Of a stretch of DNA of 64,000 nucleotides, positions 15,970-26,692 are shown one piece after another. Under the pieces are notes generated by a model, which saw only the letters and a program-made list of their open reading frames with translations, was not told the DNA's origin and ran no database searches. Source of the DNA: a phage; the sequence record PX104378.1; one strand, written 5' to 3'. How positions within the stretch are numbered: the first letter of the stretch is position 1; each line of letters starts with the position of its first letter. A program made the translations under genes and the position numbers.

Positions 15970-16251
15970 TTAACCATTAATCTTGTTTTTGACTACAAAG
16001 GATCGGAACTCATCAAAGCCACCAATATAATCACCATTATAGAAAATCTGCGGCATGGTGGCAATAACTTCTACCCCTGCGCGATCCTGAATGTCGGCAA
16101 TGATAGAATCAATCTTTACCGGACGACCGTTTTCGTCTACACCATCATTAACCGGAATGTAGATGTAAGGGATCTTACGCGATTCACAAAGGCGCTTTGC
16201 ATTCTGGCAATACTTACAGTTGTAACCTTCAAAACCAAAAATTTCTACCAT
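15970..16251 (-). CDS. nrdC: glutaredoxin/thioredoxin NrdC-like
   Basis: CKYCQNAKRL..MPQIF.NGDYIGGFDEFR resembles T4 NrdC (CVYCDNAKRL..MPQVF..GGFDQL). Confidence 0.75.
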   Translation of the reverse strand: MVEIFGFEGYNCKYCQNAKRLCESRKIPYIYIPVNDGVDENGRPVKIDSIIADIQDRAGVEVIATMPQIFYNGDYIGGFDEFRSFVVKNKING

Positions 16252-16259
16252 GTTATACC

Positions 16260-17072
16260 TCAATCTACGTTAGTTACATAAACTTCTTGCGTATCAGAAG
16301 ACTTACCACCTGAACGATCTAGGCAATAGGTCTTATTCAACAGGACGCAGTTTAAATCATTCCGCTTGATAAAGTCAAGGAGATGATCATTTACCTTTCC
16401 CTTATGATGTGTGACATTACTGATACCAAACTGAAAACCACGCGCCATAATAGATTCTACCCACTGATAGAATTTAATCTCTTCCTCGTCACTCCAAAAC
16501 TTATTATATTCCGCAGAAGTGATAAGGTATGGAGGGTCCAAATAAACGAAATCACCCGGCAAGATCTCGATCTCGTCATATCGTCCAGAAGTAAAATTGA
16601 TTCGACCGTCTTTGTTTTCTTCCTTAAAATTCAGGACACGCTCTACCGCGTTTTCGTTAAAAGTCCGGCGACCAAAATTAGCATTAAATTCGCCCTTCCG
16701 GTTATGGCGGTTAATGTTGCTAAAACTATGTTGAATCAACACAAACAGAGATAGCGGATCTGGATTCTCGTTATACTTCTTGCGGAATGCCATGTAAGCA
16801 TCTTTATCATCACGAGACAAACCATTTTCGGCAATAATCCGCTTGATCGTAGAAACCGGATCAGGACACTCGTCAATCGCTTTGTACGCTTCAATTAAGC
16901 GGTGATCATAGTCATTAGCCAGCACATCCCCTTCGACGTACAGAGACACGCTCAAGCCGCCACAAAAGGCATCAACAAAGCGGTTATAGTGCTTAGGGAA
17001 ATACTTACTAACACCCGGCAATAACTTTTCCTTATTGCCAGTATAGGGAATTAAACCTAATGCTTTCTTCAT
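16260..17072 (-). CDS. dam: DNA adenine methyltransferase Dam
   Basis: YTGNK..FVDAFCGGLSV..DFVYLDPPYLITSAEYNKFWSDEEE matches T4 Dam motifs (FxGxG and DPPY). Confidence 0.9.
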   Translation of the reverse strand: MKKALGLIPYTGNKEKLLPGVSKYFPKHYNRFVDAFCGGLSVSLYVEGDVLANDYDHRLIEAYKAIDECPDPVSTIKRIIAENGLSRDDKDAYMAFRKKYNENPDPLSLFVLIQHSFSNINRHNRKGEFNANFGRRTFNENAVERVLNFKEENKDGRINFTSGRYDEIEILPGDFVYLDPPYLITSAEYNKFWSDEEEIKFYQWVESIMARGFQFGISNVTHHKGKVNDHLLDFIKRNDLNCVLLNKTYCLDRSGGKSSDTQEVYVTNVD

Positions 17073-19640: not shown

Positions 19641-19944
19641 TAAGTTTTCTTCTCTGTGCAATTCGTGCAATCTTCCTTTCATGATTTCGTTGGTTCTTGT
19701 CTTCACAGTTTACCCATTCAACAAGATCTTTACCTAACTCGAAAGCCCATTCTCGGTCTTGCTTTACGTTTTGTAGGTATGGACTTTCCGACACTCTACG
19801 AAGTGATGTTGTCGTAACAAGAATGATCCCAGGAATGGTCGGATGTTCCTTTCCATATACAATAGGACGCGAGTCACTATCAATACCCTGTAAGAAAGTG
19901 TATCCTGAATCACTTAGAATCATATACATTTTCATTTCACACAT
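19606..19944 (-). CDS. hypothetical protein (112 aa)
   Basis: ATG at 19944 after GAGGAAGCTGTG RBS. Confidence 0.45.
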   Translation of the reverse strand: MCEMKMYMILSDSGYTFLQGIDSDSRPIVYGKEHPTIPGIILVTTTSLRRVSESPYLQNVKQDREWAFELGKDLVEWVNCEDKNQRNHERKIARIAQRRKLNEIKNRILQSM

Positions 19945-20201
19945 CACAGCTTCCTCAACCAGTTATTAAAGCGAGCAAACCATGATGCTTTTCGTGCTTC
20001 TTTTACTTTATGTGCACGAAAACCACTGAAACACCATTCATAATCATCACCGAAACATGATTCAACAGGAACACCCGCATTTCGTAGTTCTCTGGTCTTT
20101 ATCATGAATCCTTGACATAAGGGGCGACCTTCAACAATGATAGGAAGTTTAACTTTTTCCATGAAAGTATACCCAGCACGGTCAATAATTTCAATCTTCA
20201 T
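19944..20201 (-). CDS. hypothetical protein, paralog family B (MKIEIID..VKLPIIVEG)
   Basis: Shares N-terminal ~55 aa with ORFs 20220-20417 and 22543-22764; RBS GAGGATTATATT. Confidence 0.55.
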   Translation of the reverse strand: MKIEIIDRAGYTFMEKVKLPIIVEGRPLCQGFMIKTRELRNAGVPVESCFGDDYEWCFSGFRAHKVKEARKASWFARFNNWLRKL

Positions 20202-20219
20202 AATATAATCCTCAATTAG

Positions 20220-20417
20220 TTATACTGCCCATGCTTCATTTGCACGAAAACACCATTCATACTCAGGAAAATAACCTTTAATTGGTACGCCAGCTTTTTG
20301 TAGTTCCTGCGTTTCTACAAGATAATCAAGCCCATATCGACGACCTTCCACAATAATAGGAAGTTTAACGCCATTCATGAAAGAAAATCCACCATCATCA
20401 ATAATTTCAATTTTCAT
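20220..20417 (-). CDS. hypothetical protein, paralog family B
   Basis: MKIEIIDDGGFSFMNGVKLPIIVEGR..AGVP, tandem with 19944-20201. Confidence 0.5.
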   Translation of the reverse strand: MKIEIIDDGGFSFMNGVKLPIIVEGRRYGLDYLVETQELQKAGVPIKGYFPEYEWCFRANEAWAV

Positions 20418-21310: not shown

Positions 21311-21601
21311 TCAAATGGTAGTTTTGCGAAGATGGTCATTACATGCTTTTAATGCATCAGTCGCGGTGTCATAGCGAGTATTATCATAGCACCAGTAACC
21401 ATCTGTCAACTGATAAATCAATCCATCCCTTTTAGCTTCGATGAAAGATAACTCTTTGAAAGTTTCTACTTTCTTTGCTGATACTCCACGGTCACGGCGC
21501 TTATAGAGTTTAGCTAAAATGCGTTCAGCTTGTTCCTCTTTATCACCAGACAGATCCCAAATAATGTTGCGGATATGTTTGATTAATTGTTCAGTGGTCA
21601 T
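21311..21601 (-). CDS. hypothetical protein (96 aa)
   Basis: ATG after PeSL leader GGAGAATCAAAG; promoter 21631-21658. Confidence 0.5.
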   Translation of the reverse strand: MTTEQLIKHIRNIIWDLSGDKEEQAERILAKLYKRRDRGVSAKKVETFKELSFIEAKRDGLIYQLTDGYWCYDNTRYDTATDALKACNDHLRKTTI

Positions 21602-21630: not shown

Positions 21631-21658
21631 ATTATAGCACTATGATTTTCATTGTCAA
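21631..21658 (-). promoter_or_regulatory. PeSL-type early promoter (TTGACA-N16-TATAAT)
   Basis: Consensus hexamers; leader and GGAGAATCAAAG RBS before ATG 21601. Confidence 0.7.
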
Positions 21659-21675
21659 CAACTAAAAACAAAAAA

Positions 21676-21695
21676 GGCTATCCAGAAGGATAGCC
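21676..21695 (-). terminator. intrinsic terminator after the gp38-like gene
   Basis: Perfect 8-bp stem GGCTATCC/GGATAGCC with 4-nt loop followed by T-rich run on minus strand. Confidence 0.7.
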
Positions 21696-21702
21696 CATAA
21701 AA

Positions 21703-22488
21703 TTACACGCGAGCACCGTAGATCGTGCCTACTTTATCCCAGCGTGGAGCATTACCAGTAACAGCCTTACCAGCCGCACCACCAGAGTGAACAGTTCCTC
21801 CAGTACCACCTTGAATATATGAAGATTTGCCAGCAGATCCCAAATCTCCACCATTTCCTCCATAGTGAACCCCAGAAACAGTGCCTTTACCTGGGGCAGA
21901 AATTGTACCAGCAGATGCTGCCGCTGCGCCGCCTCCTGCCTTACCAGCCGCACCAAATGGACGGCCTCCGCCGCCGCCAAATATCATATCCATTTGAGGG
22001 AAAGGATGGTATCTAGCACCAGCACCGCCACCACCACCACCACCAATAATACCATTATTGTTTATTCTTAAACGAGTTCCAATTCCGTTATTTATTGCAT
22101 TTCCTCCTGCTCCGCCAGCAGAGTTACTTCCGCCATTTCCTCCCCGACCTAATACATGAACACCAGAGTTAATAATGAGTGTTACATATTCGTTTGTTAG
22201 TGAGCTAGGGAAATCAAGACAAGGAACGCCAGTAGAATGGGAAACAATATTACCGGTGATAGTAATTACTACCGGAGTAGATCCTTGTGCTTTCATCCAG
22301 TTAATAAGAGTGTCTTTATTGTAAGAGTTACTAGCGCCAATGCTATAATGAATCTCTTTAGAACGTCCGACCATCGCTGACATATACGCCGGACGACCTA
22401 AGCGTACAGCTTGCATTGCGGCGCTCATCCACCGTTGACCAGTCTCAGCAACAGCCGATGATCCGACCCAACCTGCTTTAATTGCCAT
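21703..22488 (-). CDS. gp38-like glycine-rich receptor-binding adhesin homolog (T2/S16 type)
   Basis: N-terminus MAIKAGWVGSSAVAETGQRWMSAAMQAVRLG resembles the gp38 attachment domain; C-terminal half has glycine-rich motifs GRGGNGGSNS, GGGGGGGAG, GGGGGRPFGAAG, GGNGG separated by short variable segments; ends ..WDKVGTIYGARV. Confidence 0.7.
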   Translation of the reverse strand: MAIKAGWVGSSAVAETGQRWMSAAMQAVRLGRPAYMSAMVGRSKEIHYSIGASNSYNKDTLINWMKAQGSTPVVITITGNIVSHSTGVPCLDFPSSLTNEYVTLIINSGVHVLGRGGNGGSNSAGGAGGNAINNGIGTRLRINNNGIIGGGGGGGAGARYHPFPQMDMIFGGGGGRPFGAAGKAGGGAAAASAGTISAPGKGTVSGVHYGGNGGDLGSAGKSSYIQGGTGGTVHSGGAAGKAVTGNAPRWDKVGTIYGARV

Positions 22489-22542
22489 AAAGTTTCCTCA
22501 CAAGAAAAGCCCCATTTAAGGGGCATTGATTAATAATATTAC

Positions 22543-22764
22543 TTAGATGACCTCTGCTTCACCATTCAGGAAGAAAGACCATGTTTTGTTAGGACAGCGA
22601 AGCGCCCATGATTCAGCAGTTTTAACACCAGCTTCGAACAATTGACGGCTGGTTACTTTAGCCATACCATCTTCGATGGCAACGTTTTCAATAATCATCG
22701 GGTACTTAGCGCCACGCATGAAACCGAAGCCAGCGGAAGATTTGATAATTTTAACAGTTGCCAT
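22543..22764 (-). CDS. hypothetical protein, paralog family B
   Basis: MATVKIIKSSAGFGFMRGAKYPMIIEN..EAGV parallels MKIEIID..VKLPIIVEG..AGVP; PeSL promoter 22806-22834 upstream. Confidence 0.5.
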   Translation of the reverse strand: MATVKIIKSSAGFGFMRGAKYPMIIENVAIEDGMAKVTSRQLFEAGVKTAESWALRCPNKTWSFFLNGEAEVI

Positions 22765-22805: not shown

Positions 22806-22834
22806 ATTATGCAATAACACCGGATCACTGTCAA
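22806..22834 (-). promoter_or_regulatory. PeSL-type early promoter (TTGACA-N17-CATAAT)
   Basis: Conserved leader ACACATCGAAACGAGATACAC and GGAGAATCAAAA RBS. Confidence 0.6.
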
Positions 22835-24125: not shown

Positions 24126-26273
24126 TTATTCACGTCCATTTGTATAGTAGTGTTTGAATCGCCCATAGCCAGTTTCAATAGACATATCCTTCTGGCGGAC
24201 AATCGCCCAATAACCATTACACGAATCTTGAAGATACAAATCCTTACCTTTTAGGAACTCATTAAAGATAGTGATTTGCCAGTCATAGTAGACAGAATCT
24301 TCAAGTTTATCCATCCAACCATGCGGATCTTCCATCAATTCGACAAGCTCATCAATTACCCAATACGGACACGGACTAAATCGGCCTTTGCTAAACTCGT
24401 TAAACATAGTAACAATTTTAACTTCCGGTCTAGGTTCATCCGGTCGCACAGGACGTTTATTAACTACAACCTGAACATATTTTGTATACCCGACAATCTC
24501 GCCAGGATCTAGTTCATCGTTGCTGTTTTTATCAGCAAATGCAACAAATCGATAAACACCAGCATCCTCTAGCGTAACGTTTGCTTTACGGTAAATCGGA
24601 CTTCTTGAGTCCTCCATGTCCATTTTAACACCGTTTTTACTAAACTCATAAGTCGGAACATATGAGGCTGGCGGTTTTAGCATGGTTGCTTCTAGCGTTA
24701 GGGTATCACCTTCCGTAACCTGTACCGGATGAGGACCGTCAAACTCCATATTCGGCACTACTTCAACATGATAGGTCGAACGACCAGCAATATCAAAATC
24801 AGTATGTGCACTAAATGGATCTTTACTAGGACTATCACGATATTCATGCGCCCAGATGCCGTTATGGTCTCGGTCCGCAGAGTCGGTGATCTTATATTCC
24901 TTAGTACCTAGCGGAAGTTCCGTTACTTTAACGTCGTTTTTGGTGATAACCAAAGTTCGCGTTTGTTCGGGATCATCGCTAGCTGGCGGTTCAGGATCTA
25001 TGATCTTGAGAACAATCGGTTCACCCACTTCAATATTACGATAATCATACTCTTTATCATAAATATCAAGCATACGACGATCATAAAATAATGGGCGACC
25101 GTTAGGAATCACCTGTTCACCCGCTGGATTGGCAGGAGCAACCAACAATTGAAGCGCAACGCTGTTATCATATTGCAATCCAGATAGCGTTATCCGGTCA
25201 TAACCCTCATCGCCATATTTTTTACTTTGTAGTTTCTTACCGCCAAGCATCCACGTAAAGTAAACATTGTTAGTAAGCATACCATAATGACGATTCCATG
25301 AGCTATCGGCTTGCATCACTGGCATATCAAGGTTTACTGTAGACCCAGAAGGATAACGAAAATCAATAGCACTAAAATCACGGCTAAAAAATTCGTTTTC
25401 TTTTACGTTAACCGTGAATTGATGACGTTGCCCGTCAATATATTCAGTTCCAGCACCAGGTCCATTAACAACCTTATACGCACGAACAAAAGCAACATAA
25501 ACTCCGGCATCTGACGGTTGAGCATGTTTAGTTACATACAAAGTCTTATCTTTAGACTCATAAACCAAACTACCATCATTGCGCTCTAGTCGATATCGGA
25601 CAATAGTATATTCCGCCTGATTTGGTGCATCATCCTCTACGGTAAAATAAGCAGGTGCATATTTTTGTACGTTGAATACTTCCTTATTTTCAGTGATGTT
25701 TGCATAGAAAGGATATACAAATTTAACCTCACCATGTTCATCACTCAATTCCATTTTATATGTACCGGAAAATTCAGGCCAAGCGAATTTTGCAATTTTA
25801 AATTCACGATGGTCTAACCCCAGATCACCATCAACGGAATCAACCAAACCATCATTATAATAAAGGTCAACCGAAATATTAGGCTGGATATGACTACGAA
25901 AAACAATCTTTGCCTTGATTTCATCACCAATATTAAAAGACGTCGGCGGGTATACATGTTCCACATATGGATTATCAAAAAGTTCAAAGGTGAAGTTTTC
26001 CGTGCCGATATCTACGGATTCGCCAGAAAGATTTTCATCATCTTGAGCAAAACCACGAACATTAACAGACCAACCTGTTTTATCTTCCTCTTTAACAGAT
26101 TTTAGCGGAAAGGATGGACCATCTGTCATTGTGATCAACTTATCATTCTTTTTCCACAAATAACCTTTTCGTCTTTTCTCTGGGTCTTCCGACTCAGCAA
26201 CAATAGAACATTCAAAAGTATGAGGAAGCCAAATTTGTGAGTTAATTGTAGTGTTTTTAATTTCTGCTGGCAT
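24126..26273 (-). CDS. large hypothetical protein (~715 aa) with Ig-like repeat signatures
   Basis: Recurrent D-x-G-x-Y motifs (SDAGVYVAFVRAYKV, EDAGVYRFVAFADK) typical of Ig-like beta-sandwich domains; start at ATG 26273 after AGGGGGA RBS; no signal peptide. Confidence 0.6.
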   Translation of the reverse strand: MPAEIKNTTINSQIWLPHTFECSIVAESEDPEKRRKGYLWKKNDKLITMTDGPSFPLKSVKEEDKTGWSVNVRGFAQDDENLSGESVDIGTENFTFELFDNPYVEHVYPPTSFNIGDEIKAKIVFRSHIQPNISVDLYYNDGLVDSVDGDLGLDHREFKIAKFAWPEFSGTYKMELSDEHGEVKFVYPFYANITENKEVFNVQKYAPAYFTVEDDAPNQAEYTIVRYRLERNDGSLVYESKDKTLYVTKHAQPSDAGVYVAFVRAYKVVNGPGAGTEYIDGQRHQFTVNVKENEFFSRDFSAIDFRYPSGSTVNLDMPVMQADSSWNRHYGMLTNNVYFTWMLGGKKLQSKKYGDEGYDRITLSGLQYDNSVALQLLVAPANPAGEQVIPNGRPLFYDRRMLDIYDKEYDYRNIEVGEPIVLKIIDPEPPASDDPEQTRTLVITKNDVKVTELPLGTKEYKITDSADRDHNGIWAHEYRDSPSKDPFSAHTDFDIAGRSTYHVEVVPNMEFDGPHPVQVTEGDTLTLEATMLKPPASYVPTYEFSKNGVKMDMEDSRSPIYRKANVTLEDAGVYRFVAFADKNSNDELDPGEIVGYTKYVQVVVNKRPVRPDEPRPEVKIVTMFNEFSKGRFSPCPYWVIDELVELMEDPHGWMDKLEDSVYYDWQITIFNEFLKGKDLYLQDSCNGYWAIVRQKDMSIETGYGRFKHYYTNGRE

Positions 26274-26293
26274 GTATCCCCCTGTGACTGACA

Positions 26294-26692
26294 TTAAGCC
26301 AGTCGAGTGAGTTTATAAATTGTTTTAAAGCATAGAACTTTTATATCGTCTAAAACGCTCTGTAACGAGCTATCAACATCATTATAAATCTCACTAGCCA
26401 TTTGCGTTAACTCTTGCAAATAGGCAATTTCGCTAATCTCCTTGCGGACGACCAACGTTGGCTGATAACGACCAGTGATCCCAATATTGGTTTCAGTGAA
26501 ATTATCAACCAATTCTTGCATTTCAAGATAGAACTCTTCGAGAGCCTTATGTTTTGCATAAGATCCCGGACCAGTTACCCCAAAATGCGCAGAATGCATA
26601 TAAGTAACACTCATCAGACATTCACCGATAAAGCGGTCAACTTTATTAGCTTTCCCCTCTTCGGACGTCTTTCGAAAATCACTGAATTTCAT
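26294..26692 (-). CDS. hypothetical protein (132 aa)
   Basis: Start at ATG 26692 after GGAGAATCGAGAAC RBS. Confidence 0.4.
   Translation of the reverse strand: MKFSDFRKTSEEGKANKVDRFIGECLMSVTYMHSAHFGVTGPGSYAKHKALEEFYLEMQELVDNFTETNIGITGRYQPTLVVRKEISEIAYLQELTQMASEIYNDVDSSLQSVLDDIKVLCFKTIYKLTRLA

Follow-up and report, generated by a model that had tools for sequence, protein, structure and literature searches.

The structural prototype of the gp38 adhesins is that of Salmonella phage S16 (6F45 chain D), in which gene 38 (g38) lies directly after gene 37 (g37). The usual order g37-g38-t is also that of the Mosigvirus phages AV115 and AV114 and of the Tequatrovirus phages T-01 and REP4. Displacement of g38 in RB49-like phages of E. 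coli has been described since 2002 (Desplats 2002, as cited by Trojet 2011). In the 2025 Npj Viruses paper the gp38 of Krischvirus FL37 and FL38 is reported not to be near the holin (PMC12032242), and a bioRxiv preprint of 2026 has published the displaced g38, at ~55 kb from gene 37.

From the literature, gp38 is a host-range determinant. In spontaneous host-range mutants of RB49 the only changes were gp38 E230K or E230K+Y231S (Golomidova 2022, PMC9569957). The same study took the protein to be the adhesin on the long tail fibres of RB49, Cognac49, Whisky49 and Brandy49, assigned to it the OmpA/O-antigen specificity of RB49, and held gp38 differences to account for host range among RB49-like phages.

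A further system of relevance here is that of the promoter/stem-loop cassettes (PeSLs) of RB49 and phi1 (Arbiol 2010, PMC2839356), in which, as at the present locus, a consensus sigma-70 promoter is combined with an intergenic stem-loop in a hyperplastic region, and in which genes at the cassette are present or absent between close relatives. That paper makes no mention of g38, gp38 or an adhesin in connection with PeSLs.

The stretch of DNA analysed here (64 kb; "the window") is that of an RB49-like Krischvirus whose nearest relative is Enterobacteria phage Brandy (Brandy49, MZ504876). DNA identity of the region is 96–97% to Brandy49 and 91–96% to many other RB49-like Krischvirus. Brandy49 and RB49 [AY343333] have g38 at the same displaced locus as the window and share with it the flanking ORFs, the hairpin, the terminator and the promoter (Table 1). 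The typical synteny, in which the gene lies directly downstream of g37, is not found; as in the relatives, g38 is between nrdC (~15970–16251) and tk (~27049–27645), both placed by synteny with the annotated GEC-3S genome. The position between these two genes, the small ORFs on either side (73 aa upstream and 96 aa downstream by the present analysis), the strong terminator downstream and the want of a gene 37 upstream had all been reported in a preliminary description of this DNA, and each of these points was upheld. Its implied novelty was not, displacement having been published already (Trojet 2011, Npj Viruses 2025, bioRxiv 2026). The displaced g38 is thus a correct observation, already documented, and the useful increments of the present analysis include two apparently exclusive g38 positions, with base-level junctions, a probable recent import from T6-like phages and a predicted receptor.

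Table 1. Features of the g38 locus, in the order in which they lie on the minus strand (window coordinates)
Feature	Position	Strand	Remarks
Sigma-70-type early promoter, TTGACA-17-CATAAT	22806–22834	minus	11/12 matches; nearest promoter upstream of g38
73-aa ORF directly upstream of g38 (phrog_7345, function unknown)	22543–22764	minus	Co-oriented with g38
GC hairpin, GCCCC-TTAAAT-GGGGC, then TTTTCTTG	22509–22524	minus	-10.0 kcal/mol; between 73-aa ORF and g38
Shine-Dalgarno sequence, GAGGAA	22494–22499	minus	5 nt before ATG; invariant in Brandy49, RB49, GEC-3S
g38 ORF	21703–22488	minus	ATG start; 261 aa
Predicted gp37-attachment domain, Krischvirus-specific type, codons 1–40	22369–22488	minus	PF21721; 97.5% to RB49, 62% to T-01/REP4 and AV115
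Predicted receptor-recognition core, codons ~110–240	21769–22161	minus	Glycine-rich motifs and hypervariable segments; recombinant patch of Tequatrovirus/Mosigvirus type
Strong intrinsic terminator 3' of g38	21675–21696	minus	9-bp stem, -15.0 kcal/mol; T-run to ~21661; annotated in GEC-3S
Perfect sigma-70 promoter, TTGACA-16-TGnTATAAT	21631–21658	minus	12/12 matches; extended -10
96-aa ORF directly downstream of g38 (phrog_14129, function unknown)	21311–21601	minus	ORF list, family match

Identity and domain structure of gp38

The ORF product was found as first described, with its N-terminus and glycine-rich motifs all present. Gp38_N (PF21721) was matched by residues 1–40 over the whole profile (positions 1–40 of 40, E=4.3e-18) and GP38 (PF05268) by residues 45–261, again over its full length (positions 1–218 of 218, E=2.8e-70). 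These two adhesin families were the only ones returned by the Pfam scan at E≤1, and a T4-type gp38 assembly chaperone was rejected on this ground. The protein also matched PHROG 2056 [tail fiber protein; host specificity] with E=1.8e-99, and was collinear with the solved chain of S16 gp38 [6F45_D] over residues 1–259 (E=2.8e-50, 45% identity). These matches bear out the earlier reading of the product as a gp38 adhesin whose N-terminus attaches to gp37 and whose C-terminal half is rich in glycine, and not as unrelated low-complexity sequence.

The glycine-rich motifs (GRMs) are GRGGNGG (residues 114–120), GGAGG (125–129), GGGGGGGAG (149–157), GGGGG(RPF) (171–175) and GGNGG (210–214), and glycine makes up 34% of residues 116–261. 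They match column by column in the gp38s of S16, the T-even phages and Krischvirus, and variability is found mostly between them. Since the motifs are conserved and variation is concentrated in the segments that separate them, the glycine-rich likeness is one of homology, not of low complexity. Like the window protein, S16 gp38 has kept the N-terminal attachment domain and all of the glycine-rich motifs; the two differ in their hypervariable loops and in the position of their genes. Given the full-length identity to the solved S16 chain, gp38 is predicted to adopt a polyglycine-II sandwich fold; a single-sequence AlphaFold2 model of the window protein had a mean pLDDT of 31.8.

Taking the profile matches together with the gene neighbourhoods described below, we consider it very probable that this gene is the g38 of RB49-like Krischvirus, that is, a displaced gene for a full-length long-tail-fibre adhesin of the T2/T6/S16 type and the sole gp38 of the lineage. 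The protein would be a monomeric adhesin which forms the cap at the end of the long tail fibre and recognises an outer-membrane receptor of the host. Its N-terminal ~40–100 residues would dock on the trimeric gp37 tip, after self-cleavage of the C-terminal chaperone domain of gp37, and its glycine-rich C-terminal domain would present hypervariable receptor-binding loops. In this lineage the gene lies ~55 kb from gene 37 (bioRxiv 2026), in a hyperplastic stretch of early genes with nrdC on one side and tk on the other, as a compact unit (hairpin, Shine-Dalgarno sequence, g38, terminator) inserted directly ahead of a PeSL-type sigma-70 promoter. Though displaced, it still shares the common T-even adhesin pool, its core being exchanged and its Krischvirus attachment domain kept.

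Labels for the same gene differ between records. It is a "hypothetical protein" in Brandy, "tail fiber protein; host specificity" in RefSeq, and "distal long tail fiber assembly catalyst", a legacy misnomer, in the records of RB49 [g38, AAL15128], JSE and GEC-3S. Annotation pipelines and receptor predictors which seek gp38 beside gene 37 will miss a g38 displaced in this way.

Mosaic receptor core and predicted receptor

Along its length the protein changes its closest relatives twice. Residues 1–100 are 97–98% identical to RB49, and the first 40 of them only 62% identical to T-even-type gp38s. Over residues 101–240 identity falls to 60% with RB49 and 71% with GEC-3S, and is 97.1% with Tequatrovirus vB_Eco_T-01 and Mosigvirus AV115 and 93.6% with REP4. 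The last 21 residues (241–261) are again 100% identical to RB49, as against 86–90% to T-01, AV115 and REP4. The same pattern is seen in the DNA, where nt 301–720 of g38 are 45–77% identical to RB49 and 82–97% to T-01/REP4. On both sides of this patch identity to RB49 is 93–100% (97% after it), and in the flanks outside g38 identity to T-01/REP4 is 25–47%. The crossovers lie at codons ~109–113, just before GRGGNGG, and within GGAAGKAVTGNAP; both places fit the model of Trojet 2011, in which recombination of gp38 is mediated by GRMs. To judge from these alignments, the core (residues ~110–240) is swapped in from a gp38 of the Tequatrovirus/Mosigvirus type by recombination at GRMs. Retention of the Krischvirus attachment domain would be expected if that domain must fit the tip of Krischvirus gp37. 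AV115/AV114 and T-01/REP4 resemble the window phage in the core (93.6–97.1% over residues 101–240) and differ from it in the N-terminal 40 residues and in the position of the gene.

The core is 97.1% identical to the Tsx-dependent AV115 and 60–71% to RB49/GEC-3S. RB49 and GEC-3S differ from the window in having another receptor core and in their use of OmpA/O-antigen; Brandy49 does not use OmpA. The gp38 of Brandy49 [QZI93396] is 99.2% identical to that of the window, and 100% over residues 101–261. Brandy49 infects an ompA deletion strain as well as LPS/O-antigen mutants, and its receptor was reported as unidentified (PMC9569957). AV114 and AV115 have been found by experiment to need Tsx (PMC10844046). 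Because residues 101–240 are 97% identical to Tsx-dependent AV115, Tsx is the predicted receptor of the window phage gp38. Our confidence in this prediction is moderate only, since single HVS substitutions can switch the receptor, as in the example of RB68 (bioRxiv 2026). The match of the Brandy49-type core nevertheless offers a testable receptor for a broad-host-range phage of therapeutic type.

Copy number and the two positions of g38 in Krischvirus

Neither gene 37 nor a second gp38-like sequence was found in the 64-kb window, and in tblastn with the window gp38 there was one place per Krischvirus record among the matches listed. In GEC-3S the fibre operon runs g34-g35-g36-g37; after it come a 79-aa ORF and t, the holin gene. 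A search for g37-ORF79-t found 44 records at ≥80% coverage, KMB43 and FL04 among them carrying an insertion; in 42 records, including Brandy49, RB49, phi1, JSE, FL37 and FL38, the three are contiguous with no gp38 between. The 79-aa ORF is not a remnant of gp38, to which it has no similarity, and matches only phrog_402. Nor is the 107-aa ORF that follows g37 in KFS-EC, which likewise lacks similarity to gp38 and matches no family. The gp37 of GEC-3S ends in a Peptidase_S74 intramolecular chaperone (residues 814–873, E=9.8e-12), and in its C-terminal part it aligns with gp37 of S16 as solved in complex with gp38 [6F45_A, E=1.6e-4]. With this chaperone and this match, these phages have a fibre of the type that needs a gp38 cap, and the displaced gene is the sole candidate for it.

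Might the displaced gene be a second, auxiliary receptor-binding module, which provides another specificity beside a conventional g37-adjacent gp38? The gene 37 of the window genome lies outside the window, so that the lack of a g37-adjacent gp38 in this phage is judged from its relatives, Brandy49 among them, and KMB43 and MIZ4 do carry gp38 beside gene 37. The genomes with a g37-adjacent g38, however, have an empty nrdC-tk site, and those with a filled site have g37-ORF79-holin contiguous, save KFS-EC with its unrelated 107-aa ORF. No Krischvirus record has two gp38 places among the matches listed, and Brandy49 has the displaced copy only. We therefore regard an auxiliary module as highly improbable. 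A gp38 beside gene 37, which the preliminary description had asked about, is absent from complete relatives of the same arrangement, where the 79-aa ORF and the holin come next after g37.

Within Krischvirus, g38 occupies one of two positions. The nrdC-tk locus is filled in 44 records, a number equal to the 42 with g37-ORF79-t contiguous plus two KFS-EC records. In nine Krischvirus genomes (KMB43, UPWr_E1, LF73P4, FL20, MIZ4, MIZ5, G2494, G37-3 and phiS), among the matches listed, both flanks are kept and ~650–1,400 bp of the query span are missing; the gap is ~880 bp in five of the nine. KMB43 and MIZ4 have a 260-aa gp38 between g37 and the 79-aa ORF, and adjacent coordinates in kvi, phiS and Skers indicate that gp38 is beside g37 there too. 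These counts fit two mutually exclusive positions of g38 in the genus. A positional polymorphism was partly noted in the 2025 literature.

At the empty site of KMB43 and MIZ4 the stop codon (TAA) of the 73-aa ORF is followed by TTG-TTGACA-CGGGGAGAAATCCCCG-TATAAT and the leader ACCAACTAAGGAGAATCAAA, which together make up a PeSL whose stem-loop lies within the spacer of the promoter. The junction falls exactly between the 73-aa ORF stop and TTGTTGACA, and the arrangement TTGTTGACA...TATAAT...ACCAACTAAGGAGAATCAAA leader is common to this PeSL and to the window promoter downstream of g38. The empty-site PeSL is not a simple recombinant of the stem-loops that flank g38: their stems are GCCCC..GGGGC and GGGCTATCC.., as against CGGGGA..TCCCCG. 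Since the stems differ, the junction by itself does not show which way the event at the nrdC-tk site went.

In KMB43 the g37-adjacent g38 and no less than 770 nt of the 3' end of g37 are 94–95% identical in DNA to APTC-EC-2A and Yersinia phage PYps15T, both of Tequatrovirus size, and this g37-3'/g38 segment is 90% identical to T6. Similarity to RB49/KFS-EC resumes only ~10 nt past the g38 stop, and its first ~25 nt are the last codons of an RB49-type g37 (...CTTAAAAAGAATTAA), left behind g38 in KMB43 and MIZ4 as a remnant that does not code. The T6-like identity of the segment and the RB49-type remnant behind it indicate that the g37-adjacent gp38 of KMB43/MIZ4-type Krischvirus was probably acquired secondarily, from T6-like phages, and that in Krischvirus the older state would be that of the displaced copy.

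Transcription signals and expression

All of the genes around g38 are on the minus strand, and the signals of the locus are nearly invariant across Brandy49, RB49 and GEC-3S, and all of them carry annotations in GEC-3S. The early promoter upstream of the 73-aa ORF is conserved in four genomes and is an annotated promoter in GEC-3S. The hairpin between this ORF and g38 resembles an attenuator or terminator; its stem is invariant in the four genomes, and GEC-3S annotates a terminator here. Downstream, the terminator and the perfect sigma-70 promoter form a PeSL-type cassette which drives the 96-aa ORF. The adhesin gene has a stem-loop on either side, in a region of sigma-70 (early) promoters, and may be insulated by them.

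A late promoter was sought with TATAAATA, exact and with one mismatch, and with the relaxed TMTAARTA; nothing credible was found 5' of g38. The nearest (T/A)ATAAATA on the same strand is at 27015–27022, 4.5 kb off, between tk and rI, and corresponds to Pl:48756 of RB49 (Nolan 2006). A terminator (24116–24091) and the hairpin at 22524–22509 lie between it and g38. The sequence TCTAAGTA at 22540–22547 was dismissed as a late promoter, as it has two mismatches and shares bases with the 73-aa ORF stop codon. The late genes of GEC-3S do have the late motif, at -36 for g34 and -41 for g36. No late promoter was predicted for RB49 g38 by Nolan 2006, and RB49 is without MotA and without a middle mode (PMC1524935). 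The most economical reading is that g38 would be transcribed from the early-type promoter (22834–22806) through a leaky hairpin, by long late read-through, or by both.

This setting invites two other interpretations of the gene. One is that the product has the adhesin fold but acts early and outside the virion, for example in superinfection exclusion or receptor masking; the strand is that of the early genes, small early ORFs surround g38, the nearest promoter is of the sigma-70 type and a late promoter was not found. Against this, the host-range mutations of RB49 map to g38 (PMC9569957), the gp37-attachment domain is intact and lineage-specific, and recombination has traded the receptor core with true fibre adhesins of T-even phages. 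Moreover a gp37 with a self-cleaving chaperone would otherwise have no adhesin. Such a role is accordingly very unlikely. The other is that g38 serves as an unexpressed reservoir for recombination, or is in decay, behind the terminator-like hairpin which immediately precedes it. The ORF, however, is intact and has a strong Shine-Dalgarno sequence at optimal spacing; the leader, hairpin and terminator are conserved in four genomes; and the gene is the sole gp38 in 44 records, with functional genetics available in RB49. We give this possibility hardly any credence. Of the readings offered in the preliminary description it is therefore the "relocated" adhesin that stands, while the second module, the reservoir and the non-virion role do not, given the single copy and the RB49 mutants.

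For the displaced adhesin gene the hairpin may have a regulatory meaning. A GC hairpin just before the Shine-Dalgarno sequence of g38 is found in each arrangement examined (T-01, KMB43/MIZ4 and the window), and may be an attenuator that keeps gp38 below the level of gp37, which would fit one gp38 per gp37 trimer. It is conceivable, though we think it rather unlikely, that the adhesin is made independently of gene 37, from early transcripts subject to attenuation or from read-through transcripts, and that hairpin, g38 and terminator form a mobile PeSL-bounded cassette, possibly a mini-circle. If true, a cassette which can be lost, regained and moved would explain the two alternative g38 positions within one genus. 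Unlike the PeSLs of RB49 and phi1, the hairpin on the upstream side of g38 has no promoter that could be recognised.

Two smaller observations concern the region ahead of g38. A 15-nt stretch of its leader (22532–22546) is identical to part of the g37 leader of GEC-3S (L002:15954–15968), and a search for other copies of this g38/g37 leader motif found none. The 73-aa ORF has two paralogs elsewhere in the window.

The g38 leader and late-promoter motifs

The leader of the displaced gp38 adhesin gene (g38), CTAAGTAATATTATT, matches the leader of the long-tail-fibre gene g37 in phage GEC-3S, CTAAATAATATTATT, which is preceded by a terminator. No further exact copy of this match was found in the window or in the GEC-3S fibre region (L002). 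The two genes could have a leader or a promoter-like element in common; alternatively, the match could be a trace of the origin of the hairpin-g38-terminator cassette. The GEC-3S g37 leader reads TCTAAATA, which differs from the late-promoter consensus by one mismatch. Upstream of g38, the sole minus-strand late-promoter match within 4.5 kb is the exact TATAAATA between tk and rI.

Features of the window and of related Krischvirus genomes (L001, GEC-3S nrdC-tk region; L002, L009, L010 and L011, fibre regions)
Feature	Location	Strand	Remark
g38 leader	window 22532-22546	(-)	CTAAGTAATATTATT
g37 leader, GEC-3S	L002:15954-15968	(+)	CTAAATAATATTATT
TATAAATA	window 27015-27022	(-)	predicted RB49 late promoter Pl:48756
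73-aa ORF	window 22543-22764	(-)	directly upstream of g38; phrog_7345, function unknown
Paralog of 73-aa ORF	window 19944-20201	(-)	
Paralog of 73-aa ORF	window 20220-20417	(-)	
722-aa ORF	window 24126-26294	(-)	weak Ig/Hoc-like head-decoration similarity
Strong terminator	window 24116-24091	(-)	follows 722-aa ORF
Sigma-70 promoter	window 24076-24048	(-)	follows 722-aa ORF and terminator
79-aa ORF, GEC-3S	L002:18807-19046		where g38 normally lies
79-aa ORF, KMB43/MIZ4	L009:2755-2994; L010:2556-2795		downstream of g38
107-aa ORF, KFS-EC	L011:2071-2394		after g37
Putative HNH homing endonuclease gene, GEC-3S	L001:1034-1857		between nrdC and dam

The fibre tip in related genomes

The 79-aa ORF has a hydrophobic N-terminus, and its only match is to phrog_402 (function unknown). 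It was considered as a gp38 remnant and rejected, since it bears no similarity to gp38. Because KMB43 and MIZ4 keep this ORF downstream of g38, it is a separate conserved gene lying before the holin gene. KFS-EC displays a third fibre-tip arrangement within the genus: the 3' end of its g37 is divergent while still specifying Peptidase_S74, the 107-aa ORF which follows has no match in Pfam or PHROG, and g38 is kept at the nrdC-tk locus.

Annotation of the adhesin gene

The gene is labelled inconsistently in the public records of Brandy (MZ504876) and of RB49, JSE and GEC-3S (AY343333, EU863408 and HE978309), as "hypothetical protein," "distal long tail fiber assembly catalyst," "tail assembly protein," "tail fiber protein" or "receptor-recognizing protein." Keyword searches for receptor-binding proteins would overlook it.

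Neighbouring genes and differences from GEC-3S

The 73-aa ORF belongs to a small paralog family in the window; it matches the two other copies with E=1e-5 to 3e-5, and these share 53% identity with each other. The Ig/Hoc-like resemblance of the 722-aa ORF involves phrog_1149 (E=1.5e-9), its score against Pfam Ig_3 falling under the cut-off. GEC-3S has 76 bp at this site, by comparison with which the window carries an insertion of approximately 2 kb, as does Brandy, its closest relative. Unlike GEC-3S, the window lacks the putative HNH homing endonuclease gene, and its nrdC-dam interval is 94 bp (16262-16356) versus approximately 820 bp.
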